64,000 nt of DNA from Candidatus Bathyarchaeota archaeon. Lineage in GTDB: Archaea > Thermoproteota > Bathyarchaeia > Bathyarchaeales > Bathycorpusculaceae. The notes beneath the pieces were generated by a model, which was not told where the DNA came from, made no database searches, and saw only the letters and a list, made by a program, of their open reading frames with translations. Of the stretch, positions 8,124-54,890 are shown one piece after another. The position numbers and the translations under genes are program-made. Position 1 is the stretch's first letter. Every line of letters begins with the position of its first letter. The stretch lies in NCBI GenBank assembly GCA_963827165.1, contig CAWGZR010000003.1, forward strand, positions 1 through 64,000, in the 5' to 3' direction.

Positions 8124-8642
8124 TCATCTCCGCGCGCTCTTAATGAAGAAAATAACTCGGCTCGCAACTGAAGCTGAAGCAGATATCACTATGCCGACGG
8201 TTACTATGTCATAAAATAGCTGCCCTGAAATTATAAACCTCAGACCTGCAGCCCCGTATAGAAGGCTTCCGAAATATTTTCCTACTGGGTCGTAGATTTC
8301 TTCTGCGTAGAAACTAGTTACGATAAACTGACCAAAAATCACCGCTAATACGATTAAGACCCAGATGGGACAAAAACCCTTCAGCATCCAAGCGACAAAC
8401 AGACTGAACACAAAAACGAAATCAGTTGTCACATCAAAGTAAGTTCCTATCTTAGAAGAAACGCCCCATTTTCTAGCCAAAAAACCATCTGCAAAATCTG
8501 TTCCAAGAAGAACAAGGAACAGGCAAGCACCAAAAAACAACGAGCCACTGCTGACTAAAAGAAAAAGAAGCGGAACGCAAGAGAGCCGAAAAGCCGTGAT
8601 CGCAGAAGGAATCTGGCTTTTCGTATTCTTTGGCATTATCAT
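8124..8642 (-). CDS. CDP-alcohol phosphatidyltransferase family protein
   Basis: Motif DFADGFLARKWGVSSKIGTYFDVTTD. Confidence 0.9.
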   Translation of the reverse strand: MIMPKNTKSQIPSAITAFRLSCVPLLFLLVSSGSLFFGACLFLVLLGTDFADGFLARKWGVSSKIGTYFDVTTDFVFVFSLFVAWMLKGFCPIWVLIVLAVIFGQFIVTSFYAEEIYDPVGKYFGSLLYGAAGLRFIISGQLFYDIVTVGIVISASASVASRVIFFIKSARR

Positions 8643-8645
8643 TCA

Positions 8646-9225
8646 TTACGGGGTGATTTTGGTTCCATCGTTTCGAGCAATATCCGTCGCAGATCCGCTC
8701 CCTACGTTAGGCGCCATACTAAAAAGAGTCAAAGACTCTTCAACCGTGCCCCCAGCAGCGAGAACCTTCTGTTTTATGGTTTCCACGCTATTCCCAGGAC
8801 TACCTAAGCCGGTGGCAATTATCACGGTTTCAATTCCTTGCAGATTGCTAAGCCTGCCGACGTAGCGAACCTCAGCCGCTCCAGGACTGCCCCCGTAAAT
8901 CGGAAATCCAAGGACCAAAAGGCTGTAATTCGAGAGATGATATGGAGCCTGCGAACTAGGCAGTGGTAACCTCGACCCTCCACCCAGCTGATGCTAGACC
9001 GTTCGCGAAAGCGTACGAGATATCATGAGGAAAACCTGAAAGACCAGGTTGATATACAACAAGTGCAGTCTTGCTGCCCCCCGCATTGATTACTTCAATC
9101 CCGCTGATCACATCCCTGTTTAACATAACACCGACGTAGGCTAGCGACGCCGCACCTACTACAACTATCGCAAGAAAGACCGATAACACGATCTTCTTCC
9201 ATTTTTTCTGAGGCCAAAGTCTCAA
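8646..9225 (-). pseudogene. Membrane-anchored flavodoxin-like protein, frameshift near 8958
   Basis: N-terminal TM helix, ALVVYQPGLSGF, then LVLGFPIYGGSP in the next frame. Confidence 0.6.
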
Positions 9226-9537
9226 ACTAACACGCCGTCACCAAGTTACAAATCATCTGTTTATAATCCTAACGGCTGCATCACGAAGACCTAATGCAAA
9301 TATTCACTGACTATATTAGGAAACGTGGTTCTCGCAAATATAACAGCGACTCTGGCAGAAAGCAAACTTCAAATTACATAACATATAGGCTGAGCTGATC
9401 CCAGAAAGTGGTTGTAGTGGTTGTCTGATTGTAAAAAGAGTCTCAGCGTGCGTCACCAATTTTAACAGGTTTGGTTTTTAATTAATTTGCTTGCAATGGC
9501 TTAAGAAACACGTGGCTGTAAAAAAGAAAAGAAGGGG

Positions 9538-9896
9538 TTAGAATGGTTTGAATAAACCTACAAACACTAACCAAACCAGAAACGTTTTAGCGACGAAGCT
9601 AAGGATGATGTATTCTCTTTCACCGAACAAGTAGTCTTTCCATTTTCCGACGCCTTTGTACTGCAGAACCTGGTTTACCGCGAAACTCATGAACAGTATC
9701 AGGTAAATTATGAATATTACGTAGACAAAATTTGGTACGCTGTTATCACTGGCTATTATGTCTCCTGTAAAGTAGGCGAAAAGAACAACCCATGGGAAAC
9801 CTCCTGAGATGCGCCTAATATAAAAGCGGACCAGTTTGTCTTCTCGGTTTTCTGGTTTATGAGTTCCATGAGGTAGCCGAACATTATCATCATCGC
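9538..9896 (-). pseudogene. Heliorhodopsin, C-terminal half only, with a frameshift near 9812
   Basis: AMMIMFGYLME...WSAFILG/ISGGFPW...VPNFVY...SFAVNQVLQYKGVGKWKDYLFGEREYIILSFVAKTFLVW (retinal Lys in SxVAK). Confidence 0.85.
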
Positions 9897-10035
9897 GCGC
9901 GAGCGCTAGGCGCAGCTGTTGGCTTTGTATGCCTGTCGCGCGCTGTTGCATTTAAGTGAAAACTAAAATACCATTAGTATATCCAGCAAAAAGTGTAAAG
10001 AAATAAAAGAACATTTAAGGATAAACCTTAACGGT

Positions 10036-10224
10036 TTAGCATTGATTGTGACCGCAACTGCAGCTTTGATTTGACGAGTTGCCGCCGATGTATTTTTGGG
10101 GGTTTGCTTCGAAGGATTTTTTGCATCCTGGAGCGCAGAAATAGTAGTATTTGCCTTGGTAGATTGTTTTGTACTTTGCAGTTTTTTCATCAACTTCCAT
10201 GTTGCATACCAAATCTTTAGCCAT
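10036..10224 (-). CDS. YHS/TRASH-domain metal chaperone
   Basis: KDLVCNMEVD...YQGKYYYFCAPGCKKSFEANPQKY. Confidence 0.9.
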   Translation of the reverse strand: MAKDLVCNMEVDEKTAKYKTIYQGKYYYFCAPGCKKSFEANPQKYIGGNSSNQSCSCGHNQC

Positions 10225-10263
10225 ACTTTTTCACCTCCAAAAACATTGCATGATGTCTTGTAA

Positions 10264-12677
10264 CTAGATTTTCGGTTTAAATCTCCTGAGAAGTGAAGCG
10301 TTGCTAACCACGGTTACTGCGCTGCTTGCCATGGCCGCTGCCGCGTACACTGGATTAAATAGCACATGTATAATGGGGTAAAATGTACCTGCTGCCAAAG
10401 GAATAAGGACAATATTGTAGAAAAATGCCCAGAATAGATTCTGCCGAATTTTCCTCATCGTAGCGCGGCTCAACTGAATAGAAACAACTACATCCCTCAA
10501 ATCATCCTTAATTAACACTATATCTCCCGTTTCAATAGCAACATCTGTTCCGCTGCCAACAGCAATTCCAATGTCTGCCTGCGCCAAAGCCGGAGCATCG
10601 TTTATTCCATCCCCAACCATAGCAACAACTTTGCCCTCGGATTGCAACCGCTTTATCTCAGTGCTTTTCTCACTGGGAAGAACCTCGGAGAACACGCCAT
10701 TAACACCCAATTGTTTTGCTATAGCGTTGGCTGTTCTTTGATTATCGCCGGTAATCATGATGACCTCTAAGCCCATGTGTTGAAGGGTTTTTACAGCATC
10801 AGCAGAGTATTCCTTTAAGGTGTCAGCCACAGCTATCAATCCTGCAAGCTGAGTATCAACTGCAAGGAGCATCGCGGTTTTTCCTTCTTCCTCAAGTCCC
10901 TTCATCTTAGTGTCAAACGCGCCAATGTCCAGGTTGTTTACTTCCATGAGTTTGCGGTTGCCTAGCAATATTTTAGCGCCTTTATGTTCTACTTCAACTC
11001 CATATCCTGGGAGGGCGTTGAAGACGTCAGGTTCGTCAATTTGGAGGCCTTTCTCTTTTGCCTTTTTTATTATGGCTTCTCCAAGTGGGTGTTCTGAATT
11101 TTTCTCTGCGATGCAGGCTAGCTGCAAAAGTTGGTTTTCATTGAACGTTTCTGTTGGGATGATATCTGTGACTTCAGGCTCGCCCTTGGTAAGTGTTCCA
11201 GTTTTATCAAAAACTATCGTCTGAAGCTTATAAGCCGCTTCCAGTGTTTCGCCATTTTTGATTAAAATTCCGTTTTCTGCTCCTTTCCCAACCCCAACCA
11301 TAATGGCTGTGGGGGTTGCAAGTCCAAGAGCGCAGGGACAAGCAACAATTAACACCGCGATGAAAACTGTGAGAGCAAAGATGAAGGTTGCGCCAGCTAT
11401 GAAATACCATGCTATCGCGGAGAGTGTGGCGGTTATTATGATGGTTGGAACAAAATAGCCTGACGCGATATCTGCGAGTTTTTGAATAGGTGCTTTGGAA
11501 CTTAAAGCATCTTCAACCATGTTTATGATGTGGGCAAGAACTGTGTCTTTGCCGACTTGGGTAGCTTTGAATTTTAGCATCCCCGTTTTATTCATGGTTG
11601 CGCCAACAACTTGGTCTCCGTTTTTCTTTTCAATGGGGATGCTTTCGCCGGTGATAACTTTCTCATCTACTTCTGAATATCCTTCTGTAACGATGCCGTC
11701 AACAGGAATTTTTTCTCCTGGTCTAACAACCACAATGTCTCCTACCTGGACATCTTCAATCGGTATTTCCTGTTCTAGGCCATTTCTAATTATTCTGGCA
11801 GTTTTTGCTTGCAAACCCATGATTTTTCTGATGGCTTCTGAGGTTCTGCCTTTTGCTATGGCATCTAAGAGTTTTCCCAGTAAAATGAAGCTCATGATCA
11901 TTGTAGCTGTATCAAAGAATACTCCGGCGCCTGGGAACAGACTTGGTGCAAAAGTAACTGCGGTGCTGTAGAGCCACGCTGTGGATGTTCCCATAGCAAT
12001 TAAAGTATCCATGTTGGCGGTTTTGTTTCTCAAGCCCTTGTATGCGCCAACGTAAAATGTCCATCCGACAATGAATTGCGCGGGAGTTGCCAAAATAAAC
12101 AGCAAAATGTTGTTTTGTTGCATGGGCAAAACGGGGAACAACATCAAAAGTATTATGGGGATAGTCAATGCAACGCTTGCTGCCAAAAGGATTTTTAGGC
12201 GTTGAATGTGGTGTTGGCGTTCTTTGCCTTCAGCATCCTGAACGGTTTTTTCGGGTTCGATGATTTGGTAACCGACGTCTTGTATGGTTTTTTTGATTCC
12301 AGCCAAGCTTAGTTGTTCGGGGTTATATTCAACGGTGACTTTTTCTGTAGCAAAGTTAACGGTTGCATTGTACACGCCCTCTTTGCTGTTTAATGCTTTT
12401 TCAATGCTTTGGGCGCAATTAACGCAGCTCATGCCGCCTATCTGGAGCATGATTTTCTCACGGATAACTCGGTATCCTGATTCAGCTATGGTGTTTTCTA
12501 TGGTTTTCTGGTCGACGATGTCTGGGTTGTATTCTATGATTGCTTTTTCGGCGGCGAAGTTGACGGTGGCGTGGGTTACGCCGTTTAGTTTAGAGAGCGC
12601 TTTTTCTATGGTCAGTGAGCAGTTTATGAGCTCATTCCGCCGATGTTGAGGGTGATTTTTTTGTTTTCTCGGCTCAT
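10264..12677 (-). CDS. copA: Cu(I)-translocating P1B-type ATPase; true start 12677, 1-bp deletion near 12628 in the first GMSCxxC
   Basis: Two HMA domains, [32 protein letters not shown] and MASS motifs. Confidence 0.92.
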
Positions 12678-12691
12678 TTTGTTGCTTCCGC

Positions 12692-13267
12692 TTATAGAGA
12701 ACCTTTGTAGTTACTTGTTGCTGGACAACCGACACACTTTTTGGTTTCATATCGGTTACAGGGGTCGCATTCAACATTGCACGGTGAAACCTTTTTTTCT
12801 TTATTTGCCAAGTTTTCTCTTATTTGAAGGAAAGGCGAAAAATAGGTGTCGCTTACAGGGTAAAACTCCGATCTTCGGATTCCTTTGCTGCATCTTAAGG
12901 AGCATTTCTCCATCGAGATGCTCTCTAAGGTTTCTCTCGTTTCTGCAACTGTAAGTGCCATCAGATTATAGCCGCCTATTGTTTTGAAAATCTGAACTAT
13001 TCTGGGGCATTCTTCGAAACGGTCAAGGACGTTTTGCATCGCTTCAGCACTCTCCATTTCCAGCATCACGATGGCCAGGTGCAGCCCCAGCGCGCTTGGG
13101 TTGATCAGAGCAGATATTTTAATTGTGCCGTTTTCGATGAGTTTGTCCAACCTCTTCTTTGTTCCCATGCTTGTAAAACCTGTTAGTTTGGATAAATCTT
13201 CAAGAGATGTCCTACCATCCGCTTGGAGTTGAGCTATTATTTTCTTGTCAACCTTATCCATGAGCAT
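12692..13267 (-). CDS. Lrp/AsnC-family regulator with Cys-rich C-terminal domain
   Basis: [22 protein letters not shown]; C-terminus [10 protein letters not shown]...CVGCP. Confidence 0.85.
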
Positions 13268-13348
13268 ACCCGTTTACTTTCTAAACATAACCTATTAATA
13301 TTGTTTATCTATTAAACTATACTATAATCAAAACAAAAGGTTATCAAA

Positions 13349-13738
13349 ATGACAAAAAGAATAATGATGCCAGTTGAAGACGAAACAGGATTAGAAGCTC
13401 AAGTAGCACATCACTTCGGAAGAGCACCCTACTTCGCCGTAGTAGAACTTGACGAGAACCAGAAAGCCCCAAAAGTCAAAACTGAACCAAATAGAAGCGA
13501 ACACATGGGAGGCGCCCCAGGGCACTCACATGAAAGCTTCCTAGCACTAAAACCAGACGTTGTAGTAGCTTATTCAATGGGATTAGGAGCGCTGAACACC
13601 TTCCAAGACGCTGGCATAACAGTTCTGGAAGCAACTGCAAACACAGTAAAAGGCAACATTGAATCCTTCAAAGAAGGCAAACTCAAAGAACTTGCAGGTG
13701 GATGCGAACACGCCCATCACCACGAACACGAACATTAA
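13349..13738 (+). CDS. NifB/NifX-family (dinitrogenase FeMo-cofactor biosynthesis-like) protein, His-rich tail
   Basis: HFGRAPYF motif; tail CEHAHHHEHEH. Confidence 0.85.
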   Translation: MTKRIMMPVEDETGLEAQVAHHFGRAPYFAVVELDENQKAPKVKTEPNRSEHMGGAPGHSHESFLALKPDVVVAYSMGLGALNTFQDAGITVLEATANTVKGNIESFKEGKLKELAGGCEHAHHHEHEH

Positions 13739-13778
13739 ATCAAAACTAAAGCAACGAAGATTTAAGCGCGCTAGATAA

Positions 13779-13849
13779 GAAGTCGAGAGATTAGTTAGCG
13801 CTTACCCAAAGCGCACATCGAAGCAATGATCAAACGGTATCTGGCATAG
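13779..13849 (+). pseudogene. Thioredoxin-like C-terminal fragment
   Basis: EVERLVSAYPK/HIEAMIKRYLA* resembles a Trx C-terminus; begins just after GCGCGC at 13766. Confidence 0.45.
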
Positions 13850-14002
13850 CAGTCACAGAGGATAGCACATGACGAGCGTCAAAGAAAAAATAGCGGCAGT
13901 AAAATCACGGTTTGCTGGCGGAAATCTCCTGACTATCCGCTGGAACAGCTTATTGCACGCGCCCGAATTTGTTATGCTGAAAAAACCTTATATGCCAATC
14001 GC

Positions 14003-14497
14003 TTGGAAGAGGCTGTCATGACAGAACCAAAAAAAGGGCGCCCAATTTTCTTCCCAGAAAACCTGGTTCTCTTTGGTAACCTAGCGCTTTTCCTATGGAT
14101 TGTTCTTGATTCAGTGGCTTTTCTGCTATATGATTTCATAACCGGTATTATGTTTTTTATCCTAACCCTTATCTTGATTTATGGCGTACTTCACATTCTG
14201 GGTTGCCTACGTCCATGTTACAATTGCATAAAATGCACTCATGGCATGGGGCGCTTGGCAGCTTTGTACTTTGGCAGACGCATCTTTAAAGATTACAAAT
14301 ACAACTACAAACTGCCCACAGCAATATTTTTCTCACTATACATCGGAGGATTCCCTGCAGCATTCGCACTCTACTCAGCCATCGTAGATTTCACGGCTAT
14401 CAAAGCAGCATTGTTTGTGGTTCTCTTAGTGTTTACGATCTATAGTGCCTTAACTTGGCGACCAAGAAAACCAAAAAACCCAAAAGAGGCAGTATAG
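14003..14497 (+). CDS. Hypothetical 4-TM membrane protein with Cys cluster (start probably ATG 14018)
   Basis: Hydrophobic helices; CLRPCYNCIKC. Confidence 0.7.
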   Translation: MEEAVMTEPKKGRPIFFPENLVLFGNLALFLWIVLDSVAFLLYDFITGIMFFILTLILIYGVLHILGCLRPCYNCIKCTHGMGRLAALYFGRRIFKDYKYNYKLPTAIFFSLYIGGFPAAFALYSAIVDFTAIKAALFVVLLVFTIYSALTWRPRKPKNPKEAV

Positions 14498-14637
14498 CCT
14501 CGGCGGAGTTTAATGTGATTAATCTTTTGTTGCTTGTTAGCTTAATGGGATGATTTTTCGCTTTTTACGCGCGCGAAGCTGTTTAATCTTTATAATGACA
14601 AACTATTAAAACAACGTTCGAATATTATAATTCTCTA

Positions 14638-14985
14638 ATGAAGCAAACTGAAAAACCGAAAATCGATATGACGATATACAACATGCAGGCAACGATATCA
14701 AAAACGCTTGCAAACCCAATCAGATTAGCAATCTTACACGTACTAAAAGACGGAGAGAAAAACGTAAACGACCTCACCGACACCATAGGCATAAGCCAAT
14801 CAAACCTTTCCCAGCACTTAGCACTCATGCGACAGATAGGCATTGTTAACACAAGAAAGCAAGGAACAAGCGTCTTCTACAGTGTTACCAATCCCAAGAT
14901 TAACGAAGCATGCGACACAGTTCGAGAAATTCTTGTCGAACAACTCAAAAAAAATCAAGGCATTGCAAAGAAAATTACTGAATGA
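14638..14985 (+). CDS. ArsR/SmtB-family regulator
   Basis: KTLANPIRLAIL...SQSNLSQHLALMR..GIV..RKQG..VFY. Confidence 0.92.
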   Translation: MKQTEKPKIDMTIYNMQATISKTLANPIRLAILHVLKDGEKNVNDLTDTIGISQSNLSQHLALMRQIGIVNTRKQGTSVFYSVTNPKINEACDTVREILVEQLKKNQGIAKKITE

Positions 14986-15465
14986 TTGTTTGCTTCAGAA
15001 AAGGAGAGAAAAACCATGTCTGAAGAAAAAATGATCCCTCAAAGACCTGTCTTAGAAATTCTATGTTCAATTCAAGGAGCCTTAGGAGAAGATAATCAGA
15101 AAGTGTTTGCAAAGCCAAGCATGGCGCAAGGAAGAGCTTGGGCTAAAACCATTCCACCAGTGCAAACGCCAGAAGATCTTATGGCAAAAACCGCCAAATA
15201 TTTCCAAGATGACCTAAAACTTGCCAAAGCTGTTAGCTTTGAGAAACAGGGCCAAGAATACATTTTGAAGTTTAGAGGTTGCTACATTTGTCACGGCAAA
15301 CTCGTAAAAGAACGACATGGAATCACGCCTGCCTGCGCAGTGTCGATGTTTCCTGTTGGTGCAGTCAACGAAAACCTAAAGGTTCGAAATGTCCGATTGA
15401 AGGAAATTCGAAAGCCAGGTCCAACAGGCGATTGTGACATGGTATATGAGATAAAAGCGCAATAG
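14986..15465 (+). CDS. Hypothetical protein, V4R-like Cys pattern
   Basis: GCYIC...PAC...GDC spacing; operonic with ArsR. Confidence 0.6.
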   Translation: MFASEKERKTMSEEKMIPQRPVLEILCSIQGALGEDNQKVFAKPSMAQGRAWAKTIPPVQTPEDLMAKTAKYFQDDLKLAKAVSFEKQGQEYILKFRGCYICHGKLVKERHGITPACAVSMFPVGAVNENLKVRNVRLKEIRKPGPTGDCDMVYEIKAQ

Positions 15466-15487
15466 GAGACAAAAGGAAAAATTAAAG

Positions 15488-15934
15488 GTGAATTGTATGC
15501 CAGAAATGAATTTTGAAGGAACTGCAAGTTGGAGAGGCGGAACTGAATGCACTCTCTCAATTAAGGGCAAAGAACTCGTTACCGTTAGCCCGCCACCGAT
15601 GTTTGGCGGAAAAGAAGGATACTGCGTACCTGAAGACATTTTTGCCGCTGCGTTAGCTTCATGTATTAACACGCTGTTTCTTTTAATTGCCAAAAACAGT
15701 CAGCTAGAACTCAAATCCCTTGAAACAAAAGCAATTGTCAAAATGAACATCGAAGGCATGGAGAAACTAATTTTCACAGACGTACATTTCAACATGAACG
15801 TTGGCCTGCAAAACGATAACGAACGAGAACGCAAAAAAGCTAACACCGTGTACGCAATGGCACAGAAGATCTGTCCGATCCGTCAATCTTGGGGCGAAGC
15901 TGTTCCAATAAGCTTTGAGTTAAACTTTAAGTAA
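15488..15934 (+). CDS. OsmC/Ohr-family protein
   Basis: PPMFGG...PEDIFAAALASC...AQKICPI. Confidence 0.9.
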   Translation: MNCMPEMNFEGTASWRGGTECTLSIKGKELVTVSPPPMFGGKEGYCVPEDIFAAALASCINTLFLLIAKNSQLELKSLETKAIVKMNIEGMEKLIFTDVHFNMNVGLQNDNERERKKANTVYAMAQKICPIRQSWGEAVPISFELNFK

Positions 15935-15938
15935 GAAA

Positions 15939-16271
15939 TTGGGATGTAGGAGAATTTTTCCTATGCTTTTTTTGCAGATTTCTAAACATACTTCTGAAAG
16001 CTGTCCAATGCATAATCAGAATGCAGCTAAATCAGAAAAGAACTTCAACGCAAAAATCGGAGAGCTCCTTAAAAAATACCAGATAAAGATTGTAGGAAGC
16101 TGGGTTTCAATTCCTGAACATCTCAAAGTTACAGTATACGATGCAGCAAACATGGAAGCCTTGACAAAGCTCTCGATGGAACCTGAAGTCATGGATTGGC
16201 TAGGATACCAAACCACCGAAATCAAACCAGTGATAACAATTGAAGAATCCATTAAGTTGGTTCTGAAATAA
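15939..16271 (+). CDS. GYD/DUF3303-like small protein (start probably 15963)
   Basis: HTSESCP...KIVGSW..PEH...TEIKPV. Confidence 0.6.
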   Translation: MGCRRIFPMLFLQISKHTSESCPMHNQNAAKSEKNFNAKIGELLKKYQIKIVGSWVSIPEHLKVTVYDAANMEALTKLSMEPEVMDWLGYQTTEIKPVITIEESIKLVLK

Positions 16272-16512
16272 GCGAAGCCTCTTTTTCTATTTTCCGGTAA
16301 ATATCTATTTCTAAAACTGTGACCATTCTCTAAATCCATTGGCGCGCGCTCATGTGTTATTCCTCAGTTTTCGCGCACCGTCAAAGTGTCGATCTACATT
16401 TTTAATCGAATATCAATATATTCCAAGGGCGTTTCAGATCAAAGTAGCTACTATCCACTAATAACTTCTGCAAAAAGAGTTCCGTCAACGAATTAGTTAC
16501 AACTATGCGCGT

Positions 16513-17652
16513 TCATGTTGTTTCAGTGGAGGCTTCTACTATTTTCTTGATCTCTGCGTTCAAAGTGTCTGGTAGGCCAAGTATGCCCACATCCATGAAA
16601 CCGCGTATGATCAGCGAAACAGCTTGGTCACGCGACAGTTTTCGTGTCATGAGATAGGTAATTTCTTTTTCCGAGATTTTTCCCACTGCTGCCTCATGAG
16701 TTATCTCTACGCCCTTCTTTTTTGCGATTAGTTCAGGTATGGATTCCATGAACGATTCGTTGTCCATAAGCAATCCGCGGCACTCTAGATGACCTTTGCA
16801 GTCTGTACTGTCGCCTTCTATCAAGCCTCTGATTGTCATTTTTGAGCCCTCACGTGAGATGGCGCGGCTAATCATCTCTGCTTTGCTTCCTTTTCCAGTC
16901 AGAACGGCTTTTGATCCAATATCCAGCTGCGAATTTTTGTGACCGTATAAGATGCTGTTGAAGCTTACCCGTGAGTCGTCGCCTTTGCAGTACGCTGCAG
17001 GATACATTTGAATGTCCCTGACCGGACGCATGCACACGTAGTTCGATACGAATGTGGCTTTTTCAGCTATTTCGGCGACGCTTCTCGGTCGCACCAGTGT
17101 GTTCTCGCTCCATTGGTGAATCATCGTAAAGTTAAGCATAGCACCTTTTTTGACATAAATTTCGGATATGCCCAGATGCGACGCGTTTGCAACCGTTGAG
17201 TGCTGAATGCAACTGGTGATTATGTGTGCATTTGAACCTTCCTCAGCGATTATGATGTTGTGTACTCTTTGTTCAAGATTCTTCTGCGTTATCATGAGGC
17301 ATGATTGAAGAGGGAACTCCACTTCAGCGCCTGGAAGAACCCGCATGAAGTAGCCACCGCTGTAATCTTCAGCCACTCTTTTGGTGTACTCGTCCTTGTT
17401 CTTGTCAACGATTTTCCACATATAATCGTTGAGCCAGGAATACTTTTTCAGAGCTGCTTTAATATCTATAAGCTCAATTTTTCCTTCAAAAAGCTGGTTG
17501 ACTGTTGCCTGAACTGTCGTCTGGTCCAAGTGGAAAAAGGAGCCGGATCGGTTCTTGTCGTTTGATTCAATGCCAGCTTTCTGTGCTTCTTCAAGAATTT
17601 TATGCGGTAGTTTTGTCAATTCACTCTCTTTTGTCATTTTTCCAGCCCCCAA
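16513..17652 (-). CDS. sufB: SufB/D-like Fe-S scaffold (minimal SUF/SMS system)
   Basis: Q.VHNIIIAEEGS, KGHLECRGL, THEAAVGKI, IIRGF. Confidence 0.9.
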   Translation of the reverse strand: MGAGKMTKESELTKLPHKILEEAQKAGIESNDKNRSGSFFHLDQTTVQATVNQLFEGKIELIDIKAALKKYSWLNDYMWKIVDKNKDEYTKRVAEDYSGGYFMRVLPGAEVEFPLQSCLMITQKNLEQRVHNIIIAEEGSNAHIITSCIQHSTVANASHLGISEIYVKKGAMLNFTMIHQWSENTLVRPRSVAEIAEKATFVSNYVCMRPVRDIQMYPAAYCKGDDSRVSFNSILYGHKNSQLDIGSKAVLTGKGSKAEMISRAISREGSKMTIRGLIEGDSTDCKGHLECRGLLMDNESFMESIPELIAKKKGVEITHEAAVGKISEKEITYLMTRKLSRDQAVSLIIRGFMDVGILGLPDTLNAEIKKIVEASTETT

Positions 17653-18415
17653 CTACTCTTCGTCTACATGCTACGCATTCTTCGTAACCCACCTTCTTAA
17701 TATCTTCATAAATGCTCATTGGATGGGTGAAACAGTGAAACTGGCCATCTAGAAGAATGCATCCGTACTTCGCTTTGACATATTCCAGTATGTCGCCCTT
17801 GTGAGTTATCACTAAAGCTGAGCTCCCGCTACTTTCTACGTAGCGCTGAATTTCAGTGGCAATCAGCTTCAGGCTTTCTACGTCTACGCCCGAGTCAGGC
17901 TCGTCTAGAAGGAGAAGCTTGGGTTTAAGGAAAATCAACTGAAGAATTTCGGAGCGTTTTCTTTCGCCGCCGGAGAAGCCAACGTTTAGGTCTCTGTTCA
18001 AGAAGTCGGTTAATCTAAATGCTTCAATAAGTCGCTGTTCTTCTGTGCTGAATGCATCCTCAGTAGTCTTGCCAAGGCACAGCTTCAATAAGTCTGCGAG
18101 CTTCACGCCGGTGATTTCAGGAGGATTTTGGAAGCTGACCGCCATACCAAATTTCGCCCTTTCCTCCACGGTCTTTGTGGTAATATCTGTTCCATTGAAC
18201 AAAATTGTTCCTTGAGTTACTTCGTAGGTGGGAAGTCCCATAAGTGCACTTATGAGCGTGGTTTTTCCAGAACCATTAGGTCCGAAAAGAATGTGACTCT
18301 CACCGCTCTTAAGGCTAAAAGTCACGCCCTTGAGAATAGGCTTTCCCTCAACTTTCACAGTCAAATCTTTGACTTCAAGAATATCCATGACAATCATAGA
18401 GCATAGCTTAACCAT
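17621..18415 (-). CDS. sufC: SufC-like ABC ATPase with C-terminal CxxC
   Basis: GPNGSGKT, NVGFSGGERKRSE, LDEPDSGVD, EECVAC; overlaps sufB. Confidence 0.9.
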   Translation of the reverse strand: MVKLCSMIVMDILEVKDLTVKVEGKPILKGVTFSLKSGESHILFGPNGSGKTTLISALMGLPTYEVTQGTILFNGTDITTKTVEERAKFGMAVSFQNPPEITGVKLADLLKLCLGKTTEDAFSTEEQRLIEAFRLTDFLNRDLNVGFSGGERKRSEILQLIFLKPKLLLLDEPDSGVDVESLKLIATEIQRYVESSGSSALVITHKGDILEYVKAKYGCILLDGQFHCFTHPMSIYEDIKKVGYEECVACRRRVVGGWKNDKRE

Positions 18416-18858
18416 AGAAAATAAACTTTTTGAGTGAACGCAACCTCATCTTATTGAAAGAACTGAGACAAATATCCTAAATTTGCACTTTGCACTGTAC
18501 ATGATGGAGGTAGTCTTAGCAATAGCTTCAGCGCGCCGCTGTCCCGATAATGCCTAACGCGCAAAAAAGTTGCAACTGCTTTTTAAGTTTGAATTTATAA
18601 AATGCAAAAGTCGCATTTTGGCGCTCGCGCTGGCTTTTTCAGGCAAAGGGTTTATCGTTAATTCTAACAGACCTGCAAAAAGAACAGAAGCAGTAGATCT
18701 TCTAAAAGAATCTTGTTGCCGCCTATTTCATTTACGTGCGCTTTGGAGTTGTATGAGAGGCTGATGGAAATTGAGTAACATATACCTCTTCGAATATGTA
18801 GATTTATTACATAACAAACGCATATAGCTAACTAAAAGCAACCCGCAGGATAATTCCA

Positions 18859-19773
18859 ATGATTGACACAGCAAATCTCACAAAAAAATTTGGAGACCTA
18901 ACCGCCGTCGACAATCTCACTTTGCACGTCGACGAAGGCGAGGTTTTCGGTTTCCTTGGACCAAACGGCGCAGGAAAAACAACAACTGTCAGAATGCTTT
19001 GCTGTCTAATATCAAAGACCAGCGGAACTGCAAAGATAGGAAATTACGACGTCGGAAACAGCGCTGATCAACAAAAGATAAGACGAATGATCGGGCTGCT
19101 GACTGAAAATGTCGGGCTCTACGAGGAACTGAGCGCCTATGACAATCTGGATTTTTATGGTCGATTCTACAGACTTGACGTGCAGAAAAGGAAAGAGCAA
19201 ATACAGTATCTTCTCAAGATGTTGGGGCTGTGGGAAAGAAGAAACGAAGCAGCGGGAACCTTTTCCAAGGGGATGAAGCAAAAACTCGCCATAGCTCGCG
19301 CCCTCATCCATGACCCACAAGTCCTATTCTTGGATGAGCCAACTGCAAGCCTTGATCCGGAAGCTTCTAAGATAGTTCGAGACTTTATCCTCGAATTGAA
19401 AAAGGAGAAAAGAACAATCTTCCTTAACACGCATTTGCTGGATGAGGCCGAAAAGATCTGTGACCGGGTTGCGATACTAAACACTCGACTAATCGCAATA
19501 GGCACCCCGCAAGAGCTAAGACGTCAGCTATCTGGAAGAAAGATAAAGGTTCAGCTTCAGCGGGTTGATAATGTAATCGTGGAAGCGGTCAAGAAAATCG
19601 GCTTTCAAGTTTCAGAGATAACTGATAAAAGCATAGTCATTGATGTCAGCGACCCTGAGAAAGAGAATCCAGCAATTTTGAAGGTGATCGAAGTTGCTGG
19701 CGGACCCGTGCAATTCGTAACAGAGATAGGCTCATCTCTAGAAGATGTGTATCTCAAGCTCGTGAGGGGATGA
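18859..19773 (+). CDS. ABC-2 exporter ATP-binding protein
   Basis: GPNGAGKTT, FSKGMKQK, LDEPT. Confidence 0.92.
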   Translation: MIDTANLTKKFGDLTAVDNLTLHVDEGEVFGFLGPNGAGKTTTVRMLCCLISKTSGTAKIGNYDVGNSADQQKIRRMIGLLTENVGLYEELSAYDNLDFYGRFYRLDVQKRKEQIQYLLKMLGLWERRNEAAGTFSKGMKQKLAIARALIHDPQVLFLDEPTASLDPEASKIVRDFILELKKEKRTIFLNTHLLDEAEKICDRVAILNTRLIAIGTPQELRRQLSGRKIKVQLQRVDNVIVEAVKKIGFQVSEITDKSIVIDVSDPEKENPAILKVIEVAGGPVQFVTEIGSSLEDVYLKLVRG

Positions 19774-20519: not shown

Positions 20520-20549
20520 CAAAGTTAGAAGAGGGAGGTTCAAAAAAAA

Positions 20550-20801: not shown

Positions 20802-20941
20802 AAGTTCGTCGCTATCCCAAAAGGTTGAAATTTAGCCAAACTAACCGGTAATCTTTTCCGGTGTGGTAAATATCTGAACAAGACAACACGCGCTAAAGTG
20901 GAAGCAACTAAGATGGAAGAGATGAGGGAGGAGGTGGATTA

Positions 20942-21151: not shown

Positions 21152-21221
21152 GCACGACCTCAACCGCTGCGTGTCAACTCCCCATTGGTCTATTTTTTCT
21201 TATTTTTAATTCTATTAGCAG

Positions 21222-21346: not shown

Positions 21347-21439
21347 GCAATTAAAAGAAAACCACCAAACTAGCGCGCCTATGTGAAGTCTCCTAATTAG
21401 TCTTTCCTTTCTTCTTCATGCTGTCAAATTCCTCTTAGT

Positions 21440-45747: not shown

Positions 45748-47066
45748 TCATTGACGCTCTTTATCAGTTTTGTCATTTCCTTCTTGAGCTCGTCAAGTCT
45801 TTTTTGGTCTCGTGCCTCTATCGATAAGCGGAGTATTGGTGATGTATTTGATGCTCTGATCAGAGCCCACGAATCTGGAAAAACAATTTTGACGCCGTCG
45901 ATGGTGTCTGTGTTTTTATATGTTTTCAATGCCTTTTCTTTTATCTTATTGATGACTTGAAACTTCGTTTCGTCAGAGCACTTTATTTCGATTCTTTCGA
46001 AAAGTCTTGAGGGCAGCTCTTTCACGGCTTCTGACAGCTTCTGCCCCATCTTAGAGACTATTTCTGCCATGTACATACTATTTATTATTGCATCGTCGAA
46101 CCAGAAGAACTTTGGAACACATATGTGCCCAGATTCTTCAACACCAATAACCGCGTTATGTTTCTTGGTTTCCTGCACCAAAAACGTGTGCCCAACTGGT
46201 ACTCGAAACACTTTTTCCCCATATTTCTTAACCTCGTCCTCTATAATGTCTGAGCATTCTATGTTGGCGACGACAGGGCCTCTCTGAGTTTTCATTATGT
46301 CCCTGATGAAGAGGATTGCACTTTGCTCGGTCGCGATGACTTTGCCTGTGTCATCAACGAAAATGGCTCTGTCGCCATCGCCATCAAACGCTATTCCAAG
46401 ATCTGCCTTCTCGGTCACAACCTTCTTGCAGAGAGCGGTCAAGGCTTCAGGTTTCGGTTCGGGGTCTCTGTTCGAGAACTTCGGGTCGGGCCAATCAAAA
46501 AGGAAAGTGGCTTTGACACCGATTTTCTTGAGTATCTTCGGTACCAGTAAGCATGCGGCTCCGTTTCCGAAGTCAGCGACCACGCCTATTTTCTCTGGTT
46601 TTATTTTTTCAGCCACGAAATTAGCGTATGCTGCGTCCATCCCCTCGAGCGGTTTTGCTGTTCCTGTGCCTGTTTTGAATTTTTCTGAGGCGCTTATTTC
46701 TCCCAGTTTTTTGTTTTCGTCTTCGAAGAAGCCGACTCCGTCTTGATGGAAGAATTTGACGCCGTTCCACTCCGCCGGGAGATGGGAAGCGGTTATGTAG
46801 GCGGTTGCGTTGTTTTTCATTTTCCAGTTTGCAAAGACGCAGAGACTCGCAGGGCAGGTTCCGATCAGATTTGCGTTTGACCCGGTTTTTTTTAATCCTG
46901 TAACGAACGCTTCTTCAAGTTGGGCTCCGTGTTCTCTGAAGTCTCTTCCAATGGTGAAGGTGCCGGGGCACAAAGTTCCGGCTGCCTGACCTATTCGGGT
47001 CATAATCTCTTCCGTCAAGTCTTTACCGTAAATTCCTCGTATGTCGTAAGCTCTAAAAATACTCAT
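45744..47066 (-). CDS. Phosphoglucomutase/phosphomannomutase
   Basis: IFRAYDIRG, ITASH, DGDGDR, EESGH, RASNT. Confidence 0.93.
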   Translation of the reverse strand: MSIFRAYDIRGIYGKDLTEEIMTRIGQAAGTLCPGTFTIGRDFREHGAQLEEAFVTGLKKTGSNANLIGTCPASLCVFANWKMKNNATAYITASHLPAEWNGVKFFHQDGVGFFEDENKKLGEISASEKFKTGTGTAKPLEGMDAAYANFVAEKIKPEKIGVVADFGNGAACLLVPKILKKIGVKATFLFDWPDPKFSNRDPEPKPEALTALCKKVVTEKADLGIAFDGDGDRAIFVDDTGKVIATEQSAILFIRDIMKTQRGPVVANIECSDIIEDEVKKYGEKVFRVPVGHTFLVQETKKHNAVIGVEESGHICVPKFFWFDDAIINSMYMAEIVSKMGQKLSEAVKELPSRLFERIEIKCSDETKFQVINKIKEKALKTYKNTDTIDGVKIVFPDSWALIRASNTSPILRLSIEARDQKRLDELKKEMTKLIKSVNE

Positions 47067-47545
47067 TTTCTGTCACACCCTTTTCTTTGGTTCAAATTGC
47101 TGAAGCCGCTTTTCGGGTTCTGAAAAAGTGAGACTAAGCGGATTCGCGCGCGCTATTCCATAAACAGGATCCTTAACAGACATAAAAACAAAAGCCTCGC
47201 TGTGATAAAGTGCCACCTTCACCAATAATTAGCTTTCGTTCAGACAAAAAACGCCTTTTAAAACGATTTATTGTTTGAGTTCAGCTGAGAACACCGTGTG
47301 AAACAAGTCTTCTGCGCGCGCGGCCATGCTTACAACTTCCGAGCCACTCTACATAGAGGATAGTTAAACTCTGCTTATAAAATAATTCATAGTACTAAAA
47401 AATAAAAATGACCTCTTCGGCCTAATCAAAAACAGACGGAAAAAGAGATTGTGATTCAATCTTGATGACGCAAGCGGTATGTTAAAAAATTGGCGCACCC
47501 TTAAGTGTAATTCAGAGATGAACTTTTGGAGAATGGTGAGTTTAA

Positions 47546-48565
<1,020 letters not shown>

Positions 48566-49129
48566 TCGAGCACCGCTTAGCACCGCTTAAACTTTAAAAA
48601 CCCTCAAATTTTTCTTTTGCCAGAAACTTGAAAGTCTTGAACAGATTGAAGAGCATTGGCGAGCAGGTAAGCATCCGCGGGAAATGGCTGAGAAATAAGC
48701 TAAGTTTCCTTGCTATCATACAGTGTTCCAGATTTTCATCCATGAATGTTTCGTCAATTCAATCGCGATACATTCACACCAAAGGACCATTTGCTGAGGA
48801 GAGTCTGGATGCTGAGACATAGTGCCCTTTTTTTGGCAGACTAAAAGGTACGTGCCTTTACAGATTAAGCTTGGCGCGCGCCGCGCTTTATCTTCTCATT
48901 TCACTTATTACAGACTTCTTGTTTCCAGAGGCTAAAGTTAGCTCTTCCATTCCAAAGTGTAATCTGCTAGCTGTATTATTTGAAACGGTTAGGCTTGCAG
49001 TAATCACGGAATTATCTGAACTGCTTTCTTGTTGTTTTTTAGGAATTTTATTGGGCAGTACGCGTAAAGTTTGCAAAAGAATATATTAACTGCTTTCAAG
49101 CTTCTGGAAAAATCTGGAGATAATAGAAA

Positions 49130-52060: not shown

Positions 52061-52090
52061 GGCATAACAGGATAGGGACTGGGGGAGAAT

Positions 52091-52126
52091 ATGAAAAGAA
52101 TAGCAATTAACGGACTGGGGCGTATA
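52091..52126 (+). pseudogene. GAPDH 5' remnant
   Basis: RBS GGAG then MKRIAINGLGRI, after which similarity stops. Confidence 0.7.
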
Positions 52127-52205
52127 GCTCATGGATACCTTTCGGCTTGTTGCTTTGTTGACGAAAATGAAAATATTTTAAGACCTGAGAATGGGCTAAG
52201 AGCCT

Positions 52206-54758
52206 GTGGTAGGGATAAATAGCGAGGAGACTATCATGACTGTACCCAGCAATTATCTGTTACCTACCTTGCCGAAAGGACTCGAAGGACTCGTTGAGTT
52301 AGCCCTCGATCTTCGTTGGTCATGGAATCACGCCGCTGATAAGCTATGGCAATATGTTGATCCAGAGTTATGGAGTATGACCTCTAACCCGTGGCTCATG
52401 CTTCAAACAGTTAAAACGGATCGCCTTAAAGCGCTGTCGACCGATTCCACTTTCCGGGGACTGATGGATAAACTTGTGGAAGAACATCGCGAGGCGATAG
52501 GAGAGAAGGCTTGGTTTCAACAGACCCATTCTCAATCGACACTAAAAGTAGCCTATTTCAGCATGGAGTATGGACTTGGTGAAGCTCTGCCGATTTACTC
52601 GGGCGGTCTCGGGATTCTAGCTGGCGATTATCTTAAGACTGCCAGTGATCTGGGCGTTCCAGTAATTGGAGTTGGTCTTCTCTATCAGCAGGGCTATTTC
52701 CGTCAAGCAGTAGATGCCCATGGTGACCAGACCGAGTTTTACCCCTACAACGACCCCGGCCAGCTTCCAGTCATGCCAGTACGCGACCAGAATGGACAGT
52801 GGCTCCGGATAAAGATAGATTTTCCCGGTGGCGCCTTATGGTTGCGTGCCTGGGAAGCCATAGTGGGACGGGTGAAGCTTTACCTCCTGGACAGTAATGA
52901 TCCTATCAACAGTCCTACTGACCGTGGGATTACCAGCGAACTCTACGGGGGAGGACCAGAACTGCGCCTGCAACAAGAGATTGTGCTGGGAATCGGAGGC
53001 TGGCGACTGCTCAATGCAGTTGGTATTCAACCTGAAGTATGTCACCTCAATGAGGGACATGCGGCATTAGCTGTGGTCGAGCGGGCACGCAGCTTTATGT
53101 TGAGTGAACATCAGCCTTTCAAGGTGGCTTTGGCCGCAACTCGTGCGGGCAACATCTTTACCACGCATACACCTGTTGAGGCGGGTTTCGATCGATTCGC
53201 ACCAGAACTAGTTAGCCGTTATCTGGCAGATTATGCGGATCAACTGGGTATTGGATTGGGCGGTCTTCTAGCTTTAGGCCGCCAGGATCCTGCGAACTCA
53301 CAGGAACCACTCAACATGGCCTTTCTGGCCATGCGGGGTTCAGGAGTGGTCAACGGTGTCAGTCGTCTTCATGGAGAGGTAAGCCGACAAATTTTCCAAC
53401 CATTATTCCCTCGCTGGTCCAAGGGCGAGGTACCAATCACCCACGTTACCAACGGTGTTCACATGCCGTCATGGGACTCTGCACCGGCTGATACGACTTG
53501 GACTAATGCCTGCGGGAAAGAGCGTTGGCTAAATACCATGGATACGATTAAAGACGATTTGAAGAAGATAACCGATGAGTCGTTGTGGCAACTACGTAGG
53601 GAAGAAGCAGAGCAACTGATCCATTACGTGCGTGCACGTCTTGGTCGTCAGCTAGCGAGAGCAGGTGCCTCGGTGCAACTCATAAAGCAGTCCAACCAAA
53701 TACTGGACCCTGACGTTCTCACAATGGGTTTTGCCCGGCGTTTCACTGCATACAAAAGGCCAAATCTTTTGCTCCATGATCCCGATCGGCTAAGCAAGAT
53801 ACTGAACCACCCTCATCGGACTGTTCAACTCGTTATTGCCGGTAAAGCCCATCCTCACGATGAAGAAGGCAAAGCCCTGGTGCGCGCTTGGTGGGAGTAT
53901 TCGCTTCGTTCCGATGTGCAAAACAAGGTAGTCTTCCTCTCTGACTACGATATGGCTCTGGCTGAGCAGTTGGTACAAGGCGTGGACCTTTGGATAAACA
54001 CACCCCGCCGCCCCTGGGAGGCTTGCGGTACCAGCGGGATGAAGGTTTTGGTAAACGGTGGCTTGAACTTATCGGAGCTGGATGGGTGGTGGGCAGAAGC
54101 TTACCGGACCGAGGTTGGCTGGTCCATAGGCGATGGGCAGGAGCATGGTGATGACCCTAACTGGGATGCACAAGAGGCGGCTGATACTTACCGTCTCCTC
54201 GAGGAGGAGATTATTCCGTGTTTCTATGAACGTGATGGCCGAGGCATCCCTACCGCCTGGATAGCACGTATACGAACGAGTATGGCTGAGCTCACCCCGC
54301 AATTCAGTTCGAACCGAATGCTGCGAGAGTATGTTGATAGATTATACCTCGAGGCTGCCCAGAGTTATCATAAACGCTCTGCCGACGGAGCAAATGAGTC
54401 AGTGCGATTATGCAACTGGCGAGAGTTACTGGAGACATATTGGCAGAAATTATACTTCGGAAGGCTGGATGTGCACAAGGAAGGTGACAAATATATTATG
54501 ACGTTAAAAGTGTATCTTGATAAGCTTGATCCGAAGGCAGTGCAGGTTCAGCTATTCGCTGAGCCTCAGGGTAATGGACAATCCGAAATTCATGTCATGG
54601 AGGTAGCTGAGGCTGCTGGAACAGAGAATGGCATTCTCTATCGTGCCAGTATCCCAGCCCTTCGGCCAGCAGAACACTATACGCCACGCATCATTCCTTA
54701 TTTTGATGGGGCTGCGGTGCCTCTGGAAGCCAGACAAATATTATGGTATGAATCATAG
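52206..54758 (+). CDS. glgP: Alpha-glucan (glycogen) phosphorylase
   Basis: YFSMEYG, SGGLGILAGD, HLNEGH, FARRFTAYKR, EACGTSGMK. Confidence 0.95.
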   Translation: MVGINSEETIMTVPSNYLLPTLPKGLEGLVELALDLRWSWNHAADKLWQYVDPELWSMTSNPWLMLQTVKTDRLKALSTDSTFRGLMDKLVEEHREAIGEKAWFQQTHSQSTLKVAYFSMEYGLGEALPIYSGGLGILAGDYLKTASDLGVPVIGVGLLYQQGYFRQAVDAHGDQTEFYPYNDPGQLPVMPVRDQNGQWLRIKIDFPGGALWLRAWEAIVGRVKLYLLDSNDPINSPTDRGITSELYGGGPELRLQQEIVLGIGGWRLLNAVGIQPEVCHLNEGHAALAVVERARSFMLSEHQPFKVALAATRAGNIFTTHTPVEAGFDRFAPELVSRYLADYADQLGIGLGGLLALGRQDPANSQEPLNMAFLAMRGSGVVNGVSRLHGEVSRQIFQPLFPRWSKGEVPITHVTNGVHMPSWDSAPADTTWTNACGKERWLNTMDTIKDDLKKITDESLWQLRREEAEQLIHYVRARLGRQLARAGASVQLIKQSNQILDPDVLTMGFARRFTAYKRPNLLLHDPDRLSKILNHPHRTVQLVIAGKAHPHDEEGKALVRAWWEYSLRSDVQNKVVFLSDYDMALAEQLVQGVDLWINTPRRPWEACGTSGMKVLVNGGLNLSELDGWWAEAYRTEVGWSIGDGQEHGDDPNWDAQEAADTYRLLEEEIIPCFYERDGRGIPTAWIARIRTSMAELTPQFSSNRMLREYVDRLYLEAAQSYHKRSADGANESVRLCNWRELLETYWQKLYFGRLDVHKEGDKYIMTLKVYLDKLDPKAVQVQLFAEPQGNGQSEIHVMEVAEAAGTENGILYRASIPALRPAEHYTPRIIPYFDGAAVPLEARQILWYES

Positions 54759-54890
54759 TTGGCCACACTTCGACAACAGTATCTGGAAGATAATAGGACT
54801 CACCTGTTAAGCTTGGACGTTACACAAAATACGAGACTTCGCTTCTTAAAATAAACTTTTCAATTTCGGGACAAACTAGCGCGCTTAATC

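Follow-up and report, generated by a model that had tools for sequence, protein, structure and literature searches.

Alternating C/G tracts at rearrangement joints in an accessory island of a Candidatus Bathyarchaeota archaeon

The stretch of DNA analysed here (the window) comprises the first 64 kb of contig C3 (CAWGZR010000003.1) in assembly GCA_963827165.1 of a Candidatus Bathyarchaeota archaeon, a genome of 3.13 Mb in 14 contigs that is 94.5% complete. By a release-factor gene the organism belongs with Bathyarchaeia from peat and soil. A Pfam scan of 70 open reading frames (ORFs) describes the window, which has a GC content of 43.4%, as an accessory-type island followed by sugar-metabolism genes (Table 1). 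Short tracts of strictly alternating C and G are scattered through it, and a preliminary description of the sequence had taken them for recombination joints that bracket gene modules and cut genes. Alignments to paralogous copies on other contigs of the genome and to congeneric Bathyarchaeia support this at nucleotide resolution: the tracts mark real rearrangement joints in a variable island. As to their origin, we give about an even chance to the explanation that they are the excision footprints of an insertion sequence (IS) with alternating-GC tips, sealed by end joining and accompanied by IS-mediated deletions and module movement.

Alternating C/G tracts in the window and the genome

All seven alternating runs of at least 8 nt that had been listed were found at their positions, as maximal runs (the 8- and 9-nt tracts of Table 1), among a total of 18 alternating runs of at least 6 nt in the window. 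The 8-mers CGCGCGCG and GCGCGCGC each occur five times against 0.38 and 0.49 expected, and for both, none of 100 dinucleotide-preserving shuffles reached five. The hexamer GCGCGC is also in excess, with 22 copies observed and 9.3 expected (shuffle maximum 18). The control repeats (TA)4, (CA)4, (GA)4 and GGCCGGCC each occur zero times in the window, and because other dinucleotide repeats are absent we rejected general microsatellite instability as the source of the tracts. The shorter copies noted earlier at 13766, 18531 and 54879 are indeed GCGCGC, and the one at 20889 is a 5-nt CGCGC. Alignment of 13 tract sites shows that the hexamer alone is conserved (6 invariant columns) and that the flanks are unrelated. 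No tRNA or known RNA family was found at the tract sites in the window.

Two listings merged by hand give 34 distinct tracts of at least 8 nt in the 3.13-Mb genome: 7 in the window, 11 in C10:9.3-34.5 kb, and 16 elsewhere. The last group, spread over approximately 3.0 Mb, sets a background of about 0.34 per 64 kb, and the comparison of island with core that had been proposed thus yields a density of such tracts in the window about 20 times that of the rest of the low-GC genome. On contig C3 itself, 22 copies of GCGCGC lie in the window versus 19 in the other listed 217 kb or so (65-281 kb). The DNA around the window tracts has a GC content of 40-46%, while most of C10:9.3-34.5 kb has 55-66%; for this reason the cluster on C10 is probably compositional, and we did not take it for a second island of this kind. 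The first 35 kb of that contig (C10:1-35000) range from 46 to 66% GC (mostly 55-66%) against about 40-44% in the rest of the genome, with ORFs overlapping on both strands, and are foreign DNA acquired from a donor of high GC or else a contig end that is chimeric or mis-binned.

Table 1. Tracts, modules, truncated genes and gene content of the window.
Feature	Position	Strand	Remarks
CGCGCGC	8131-8137		3' end of CDP-alcohol phosphatidyltransferase ORF (8124-8642, minus)
Heliorhodopsin remnant	9538-9899	-	C-terminal half only, internal frame change; PF18761 positions 142-241 of 242
(CG)4	9894-9901		At heliorhodopsin breakpoint
GC-rich spacer, 35 nt	9902-9936		Between two tracts; no homologue in C5 or congeners
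CGCGCGC	9937-9943		Left edge of YHS-copA-Lrp-NifX module
YHS-copA-Lrp-NifX module	9944-13765	-	copA P-type ATPase 10264-12777; Lrp/AsnC regulator 12692-13267; NifX-like 13349-13738 on plus strand; Pfam and DNA comparison
GCGCGC	13766-13771		Clean 6-nt insertion in native ...TTAA then TAGGTGAAAAG...
Thioredoxin C-terminal tail, 50-aa ORF, 164-aa membrane protein	13777-14551	+	Block
(CG)4	14568-14575		Upstream of ArsR operon; C5 homology decays at tract
ArsR regulator, 159-aa ORF, OsmC, DUF3303 protein	14576-16341	+	Pfam
(GC)4	16342-16349		Joint, DUF3303 gene/sufBC module
sufBC module	16350-18530	-	sufB/D 16513-17652, sufC 17621-18415
GCGCGC	18531-18536		Upstream of sufC
IS110-family element	21374-22603	-	Pfam; left end begins GCGCGCC
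Dsr1 (defence-associated sirtuin) C-terminal fragment	26810-27975	-	PADLOC PDLC04166 positions 849-1221 of 1227, E = 7e-88
(CG)4.5	27963-27971		At Dsr1 truncation; reading frame open through tract up to 27975
(CG)4.5	47145-47153		Filler at deletion joint, PGM upstream region/first 10 YHS codons
YHS gene start and its upstream region	47155-47315	-	160-nt block between two tracts
(GC)4.5	47314-47322		Upstream of accessory GAPDH gene; G012/G014 homology ends here
(GC)4	48874-48881		Downstream of GAPDH, within 340-nt stretch without homologues
GCGCGC preceded by CAAACTA	54879-54884		13 nt identical to IS110 left flank
GajB-like UvrD helicase, CDP-alcohol phosphatidyltransferase, half heliorhodopsin, YHS-copA-Lrp-NifX, ArsR-OsmC-DUF3303, sufBC, ABC exporter, IS110, two IS1182-like copies, Dsr1 fragment	0-31 kb		Pfam
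Transporters, two P-type ATPases, aRF1 paralogue	31-47 kb		Pfam
PGM, GAPDH, PEP synthase/PPDK-like, phosphorylase, PGK, aldolase, enolase, PGI, GDE	47-64 kb		Pfam; ISC1217-like element interrupts the sugar genes

Homology breaks and truncated genes at the tracts

When the window was aligned to its paralogous copies on contigs C5 and C6 and to congeneric genomes (G numbers; 40 relatives were searched with 8000-21500), homology was found to break at the tracts, on them or within about 10 nt, as the preliminary description had anticipated. Peat metagenome runs (X numbers) served as a further comparison; each run holds at most 0.26 of the sampled words, and window parts that they leave uncovered were not counted as evidence. 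Four genes are cut at tracts, those for heliorhodopsin, thioredoxin, a YHS protein and Dsr1.

The heliorhodopsin gene had been described as cut at 9896, and homology to all six congeners compared ends at 9896/9897. At this point the window reads ...CATCAT followed by CGCGCGCGAG, and the congeners read ...CATCAT(N)GC(G/A)T(T/A)..., with xGCG alone in common; all six carry the gene onward, where the window switches to CGCGCGCG. One relative, G008, reads ACGCGT at the break position. A profile search of the whole genome recovered heliorhodopsin positions 128-241 only, at this locus, and the N-terminal half nowhere. The adjoining region 8000-9500 has no DNA homologues among the relatives searched.

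To the right of the spacer, homology to C5 begins at the 9937 tract, where C5 reads GCGTGC, and from 9938 to 13753 the window matches its paralogue C5:580719-584532 at 87% identity. At the other edge of this module both C5 and G023 read ...TTAA directly followed by TAGGTGAAAAG..., with no hexamer, and the window reads ...TTTAA, GCGCGC and TAGATAAGAAG before entering the thioredoxin tail. The joint of a 2.4-kb deletion follows the hexamer on its right side at a distance of 5-11 nt and falls on an AAG microhomology. The block that follows (13777-14551) shows 88-93% identity to C5:577505-578271, and also to G023, G012 and G010, and the alignments to C5 and G023 confirm that the thioredoxin tail after 13771 is what remains of a truncated gene. 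Because the block is collinear with C5 and G023 throughout, the further breakpoint that had been placed at 13958 does not exist.

The ArsR module occurs in peat run X4 with another upstream partner, and there GCGCGCCGCGCG ends at an equal distance of 9 nt. For parts of the ArsR-OsmC-DUF3303 segment, matches of 92-94% are found, dispersed and in altered order, in G020:C2 and G020:C83. At 16342 the latter contig is identical to the window through ...ATCCATTGG and divergent beyond, with no sufBC between its DUF3303 gene and its ABC exporter. The 18531 tract is not an exact joint, since homology to G019 stops 66 nt before it. Over the 8000-21500 region as a whole, the edges of the C5 blocks fall at tracts, in agreement with the claim that tracts bracket modules.

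The gene with helical repeats that had been described as cut at 27963 proved, by its PADLOC profile match, to be the C-terminal third of Dsr1. A DNA search of 26700-30400 against 40 congeners gave no homologue, so the joint at 27963 is read from the Dsr1 profile. The suspected truncation of a YHS start near 47183-47155 is borne out by G012 and G014, which carry an uninterrupted YHS gene of which the window retains the first 10 codons only. At 47145 this stub is joined via CGCGCGCGC to the PGM upstream region, and in G012 and G014 neither parental side has the tract. The 160-nt block made up of the YHS start and its upstream region exists as a separate unit at seven loci of five congeners, where the matches begin at query position 2156-2158. 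At the position of the 47314 tract the C6 paralogue has a degenerate GGTGCGCTG, and the 340 nt around 48874 have no homologues among the relatives searched. The DNA that follows GAPDH in G012 and G014 is found in the source genome on contig C9 (window 48617; C9:22405-23371), which points to a translocation or to an assembly break at the island border; the neighbours of C9:22405-23371 are an IS1182-like copy, a site with TAGCGCGCTA and a tract of the (CG)4 type. Window 43337-48570, with the 3' part of a P-type ATPase gene, PGM, the YHS stub and the accessory GAPDH gene, is duplicated over 5.2 kb at C6:20572-25810 with 93-96% identity. The core GAPDH gene is separate (C5:279797-280833) and 76% identical to the accessory one.

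The joints could in principle be assembly artefacts, as the preliminary description had allowed, and three observations refute this. The 47145 joint is common to the C6 copy, 93-96% identical, in which the tract is 11 nt long against 9 nt in the window; G020:C2 has a CGCGCGCGC joint of its own where the window has native sequence; and a 439-nt contig of the independent peat run X6 spans 16063-16501 and bridges the 16342 joint. The tracts at 13766 and 47145 are extra DNA that unrearranged relatives lack. More generally, the tracts might be no feature of rearrangement at all, and owe their presence to chance or composition, to a role as regulatory palindromes of intergenic DNA, or to chimeras of assembly or library preparation. 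The largest cluster of tracts (C10:9-35 kb), in 55-66% GC DNA and probably compositional, would fit this, as would the hexamers that lie inside intact genes of the window, one of which, at 20611, is conserved in G020. It is highly improbable for the window tracts, which lie in DNA of 40-46% GC, in numbers that 0 of 100 shuffles reach, at cut genes, and at joints also seen in a diverged paralogue, another species and an independent metagenome contig.

A GC-tipped insertion sequence and the origin of the tracts

Tract numbers vary widely among the 41 genomes of the genus, from 0 to 24 for CGCGCGCG and from 0 to 44 for GCGCGCGC. In the richest genome, G019, a 5.1-kb stretch of contig C16 holds six tracts against 0.61 expected, with one or two in each intergenic gap. 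This stretch encodes a DDE transposase (DUF772 and DDE_Tnp_1, IS5/IS1182-like) within an element whose perfect inverted repeats begin GCGCGCCAGTG... and whose tips are one pair of the tracts; a solo end of the element stands beside another tract. The IS is approximately 1.12 kb long, carries the one DDE transposase, and has terminal inverted repeats GCGCGCCAGTGCGTTGCTAA ... TTAGCAACGCACTGGCGCGC that open with a GCGCGC tract. Its end, ...CACTGGCGCGC, is conserved in five copies (67-100% identical, at different loci) and at seven further junctions, and beyond the five copies the sequence differs at once. At nine junctions the alternating stretch outside CAGTG measures from 5 to at least 10 nt, again with different flanks beyond it; in G042 the (CG)4 tract CGCGCGCG at G042:C165:2460 is the IS end itself. 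To the right of the G019 insertion, G056 has the same flanking sequence from the identical base onward but neither tract nor IS, its left neighbour being different, and we conclude that the tract at the G019 site arrived with the element.

Other candidates for a GC-tipped source did not hold. The two IS1182-like copies of the window (22.7-24.4 and 25.1-26.8 kb) and its ISC1217-like element have ends without GC tips. Pairs of tracts lie at similar offsets in G019:C1 and G019:C35, in regions that are not homologous to each other. The ISC1217/DDE_5-like element (window 55682-56979) has 42-nt inverted repeats and a transposase split into ORFs 55760-56443 and 56317-56949. A repeat of about 127 nt at positions 3401-3527 of the G019:C16 segment, which may be a miniature inverted-repeat transposable element, exists in many copies of 81-87% identity in several genomes of the genus, including C13:3118-3243, C13:34488-34613 and C5:20718-20844 in the source genome.

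We called a genome tract-rich at five or more copies of CGCGCGCG together with eight or more of GCGCGCGC, a cut-off chosen after the data had been seen. The IS or its stubs are present in 11 of the 41 genomes, ten of them tract-rich, and 22 of the 30 IS-negative genomes are tract-poor; a Fisher test of this association, calculated by hand on related genomes and with a post hoc threshold, gives approximately 3e-4. The counts of the IS-end motif follow the same ranking as the tract counts at the top of the range (IS ends against GCGCGCGC: G019 25/44, G047 9/31, G042 8/31, G016 7/17, G003 5/27; controls at most 2). Seven of the eight IS matches in G047 are at contig ends, which points to many unassembled copies. 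The source genome has no intact copy; it retains a decayed 131-nt stub at C6:13104-13234, within its other tract-rich island, and a second stub or solo IS end of about 22 nt at C13:44333.

The preliminary description had offered, as its third alternative, that the tracts are the footprints of an excised transposon. This comes closest to the data: the GC-tipped DDE element exists in congeners, and we infer both an excision that leaves the tips behind and its sealing by non-homologous end joining (NHEJ). A cut-and-paste IS with alternating-GC tips would have moved through the accessory DNA of the lineage, and each departure would have left a few self-complementary terminal G/C bases on either flank. 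The host's Ku, LigD-polymerase and ligase-phosphoesterase would have sealed the gap to give an alternating tract whose length varies (6-11 nt) and which does not depend on its flanks. During its residence the IS would cause adjacent deletions and move DNA caught between two copies, which would place the scars at truncated genes and around operon-sized modules of different sources. Accessory DNA would tolerate such insertions, possibly with local hopping, so that the scars would concentrate in flexible islands such as the window. In the source genome the IS would since have died out, or may sit in unassembled repeats.

The likeness is to the excision footprints of Tc1/mariner-IS630 elements, known from eukaryotic and IS630 work. 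Such footprints consist of a few added bases, palindromic and of variable length, that correspond to the terminal bases of the element; they do not depend on the flanks, often come with deletions beside them, and accumulate at former positions of the element. As here, the host has end-joining genes. The transposase is different, however, since it combines DUF772 and DDE_Tnp_1 (IS5/IS1182-like), a group in which such footprints are not established, and no TA-type target duplication is seen. Islands built by IS26-type elements resemble the window in having operon-sized modules of varied sources side by side, with truncated genes at the borders; there the IS copies stay at the borders, whereas here 6-11 nt remain and the genome has no intact copy. 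Our literature search returned nothing on (CG)n joints, on GC-tipped IS or on IS footprints in archaea, as far as the text available for the records extends.

Several observations weigh against the tracts being excision footprints. The association of IS and tracts is partly trivial, because IS ends themselves contain tracts, and it was drawn from related, non-independent genomes with a post hoc threshold. Eight IS-negative genomes are tract-rich (G002, G012, G022, G046, G050, G051, G054 and G056), and G054 has 24 copies of GCGCGCGC with no IS-end motif. Tract length varies from 5 to 8 nt among IS copies of 98-100% identity within G047. A tract is missing from some breakpoints, among them 48570, where the C6 duplication ends on the right, and a break in peat run X3 at 13989, and certain tracts lie 5-66 nt off the break. 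The IS copies examined show no sign of target-site duplication. Neither the comparison of G019 with G056 nor a scan of metagenomes found a locus filled by the IS in one genome and reduced to a bare tract in another; a metagenome scan for a filled 16342 allele returned two chance matches on unrelated high-GC contigs. The Ku gene of the source genome has a +1 frameshift at a C4 run near C10:350.85 kb relative to G003 and G019, which is either real decay or a homopolymer error. As to the chemistry, IS4/IS5-type transposases cut flush at the element ends, and to our knowledge terminal bases left behind are established for Tc1/mariner-IS630 and not for this IS family. It is the lack of a pair of occupied and scarred alleles, the eight IS-negative tract-rich genomes, the variable tips and the cleavage chemistry that keep our confidence in excision footprints at the midpoint.

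The variation in tract length fits a tract that is derived from the target or made at the junction as well as it fits a tip borne by the IS. The tracts may then have come first: (CG)n would arise in some other way and be a preferred target of both the GC-tipped IS and the IS110 element, or form a fragile, Z-DNA-prone site of recurrent breaks and end joining, and the IS ends would look GC-tipped through target duplication on insertion. The length of 5 to at least 10 nt beside an invariant CAGTG end in near-identical copies accords with this, as do the additional GC units outside the IS end in G003 and G042, the re-use of a module boundary with different partners and a retained tract (X4 at 14585), the breaks that fall a few nucleotides beside a tract rather than within it, and the position of IS110 at such a site. 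Against it, the native sequence at 13766, at 47145 and at the G019/G056 flank has no tract, so that tracts do arise at previously tract-free positions; the idea also provides no mechanism for their first appearance, and other dinucleotide repeats do not accumulate. We regard this order of events as rather unlikely.

End joining might also make the tracts on its own. The genome has a complete NHEJ operon at C10:349085-352296 (minus strand) for a LigD-type primase-polymerase, Ku, and a ligase fused to a 3'-phosphoesterase domain (PF21686, PF02735, PF01068 with PF04679, and PF13298), and Ku is present in 33 of the 41 genomes of the genus. NHEJ of the Ku/LigD type is rare in archaea. The operon is like those of mycobacteria and Methanocella in joining a LigD primase-polymerase, Ku and an ATP-ligase/phosphoesterase; the difference is that its role at the present joints is a supposition of ours, and that Ku is frameshifted here. 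The presence of Ku was tried as a predictor of tracts and is uninformative, because seven of the eight Ku-negative genomes are tract-poor but are small or incomplete, and many Ku-positive genomes are tract-poor as well. In this IS-independent scheme Ku/LigD, or an alternative route, would add or reiterate self-complementary CG at broken ends, perhaps after staggered cuts at GCGC/CGCG palindromes and fill-in, to give universal cohesive joints at deletions and captured foreign DNA. It would suit a genus so equipped, unusually for archaea, as well as the flank-independent extra bases at deletion joints, the AAG microhomology beside 13766, the xGCG shared at the heliorhodopsin break with ACGCGT there in G008, and the existence of tract-rich genomes that have no IS. 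Yet many Ku-positive genomes have 0-2 tracts (for example G001, G008, G014, G015 and G055), and the presence of the same tract on transposon ends goes unexplained. LigD polymerases are known to extend ends by one or a few untemplated bases and are not known to add 6-11 nt in strict alternation, and the products of Ku/LigD joining are short fill-ins or single-base additions. We consider a pure end-joining filler distinctly unlikely.

The preliminary description had also considered an unknown recombinase acting on an integron-like cassette system. A dedicated site-specific enzyme with the (CG)n palindrome as its crossover site would shuffle cassettes as in integrons or in the PAISt island, for which an 8-bp palindromic att site with modular excision has been reported (PMC4057263). 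Like integron arrays and PAISt, the window and G019:C16 have operon-sized modules separated in array-like fashion by a recurring short palindrome, and module content and order vary between relatives, with permuted modules and tracts at the joints. The difference is that neither the Pfam scan of 70 window ORFs nor a scan of another 13 unexplained ORFs with NCBIfam and PADLOC brought up a recombinase of the tyrosine or serine type. Integron attC sites are imperfect palindromes of 55-140 nt with conserved core boxes, and the 13 tract sites share 6 invariant columns, with no attC-like conserved flank. Module boundaries are inexact, shifting by 10-30 nt between genomes, and such an enzyme would require pre-existing sites inside genes where relatives have none. 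A dedicated recombinase is therefore very unlikely, and the integron-like form of the idea is not supported.

A bolder interpretation, which we think unlikely, gives the tracts an active part as working joints in a system by which the archaeon shuffles DNA, and in which an enzyme adds self-complementary (CG)n tails to arbitrary ends and any two such ends anneal and are ligated. The enzyme would be a polymerase or a recombinase; the LigD primase-polymerase is one possibility, and the IS transposase, if it acts in trans, another. In flexible islands the system would capture operon-sized modules, delete them and change their order, and each joint could serve again for breakage and joining.

If the tracts are excision footprints, an uncultured peat archaeon bears a trail of a kind normally associated with eukaryotic genomes, preserved because its lineage has Ku/LigD end joining. 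A (CG)3-5 run in AT-rich DNA would then be a simple marker of past rearrangement and of module gain or loss in Bathyarchaeia, a new IS subgroup with alternating-GC tips would be documented, and archaeal NHEJ would be linked to mobile-element dynamics and the building of genomic islands. The window shows the cutting and reassortment of genes for defence (Dsr1), light sensing (heliorhodopsin) and metal or redox functions. IS-driven island remodelling, transposon footprints and Ku/LigD NHEJ are each of known kinds; their combination appears to be new, with an archaeal IS subgroup that has alternating-GC tips, footprint-like scars at module joints and a genus of Bathyarchaeia widely equipped for NHEJ.

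The IS110 element and other features of the window

The bridge recombinase of the window's IS110 element had been proposed as the maker of the joints. The element abuts GCGCGC, and, as had been reported, CAAACTAGCGCGC is identical at 21366 and 54872, so that its 13-nt flank recurs; GCGCTAGTTT is found three times against 0.14 expected. These observations are what the proposal can draw on. The element is, however, single-copy in the source genome, and IS110 transposases, present in 19 of the 41 genomes, are unrelated to tract counts: G003, G019, G004, G012, G050 and G054 have no IS110 yet many tracts, and G001 has four copies and no CGCGCGCG. A search with PF01548 gave no match in nine tract-rich genomes and 3-4 copies in the tract-free G001 and G018. 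The flanks of the joints are arbitrary and show no extended motif, the extended palindrome TAGCGCGCTA (at most one mismatch) being found 34 times against 48 for its reversed control. AAACTAGCGC was likewise dismissed as an extended motif, with seven occurrences genome-wide, three of them in the window, against nine for the control. The IS110 recombinase is thus almost certainly not the source of the joints.

A location of the element in or next to a GC-tract site is plausible, given that its left end starts GCGCGCC and that its 13-nt flank recurs at 54872, and with the excess of GCGCTAGTTT and the abutting GCGCGC this suggests that IS110 may prefer such sites. In peat run X4 the element starts at 21374 with a different flank. 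The arrangement resembles that of IS110/IS1111 elements that insert in short repeated palindromes, with an apparently uninterrupted copy of its flank at 54872; it differs in that the window element is a passenger and not the maker of the tracts.

Two longer repeats, neither of which is a tRNA or an Rfam family, are present in the window. One of about 100 nt, 83-85% identical, lies at 2354-2455 and at 21222-21322, upstream of the IS110 flank; the other is inverted, its two 71-nt arms at 3554-3624 and 55572-55642 being 93% complementary and separated by 52 kb.

The plus-strand gene at 5051-7414 encodes a helicase of the UvrD family, which in PADLOC is matched best by the model of a DRT-associated helicase (RTasHel) and by GajB models. 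Together with the Dsr1 fragment it is a remnant or member of anti-phage defence systems. An aRF1/eRF1-family gene (38705-40000, minus strand) stands between two P-type ATPase paralogues (36130-38694 and 42934-45747) that are 70-73% identical in DNA. The release-factor gene is present twice in one related metagenome-assembled genome (93% and 82% identity), a sign that it may be an accessory paralogue. Finally, a DCD (development and cell death) domain protein is encoded at 40396-41568 beside a C2H2 zinc-finger protein, both domains being commoner in eukaryotes.

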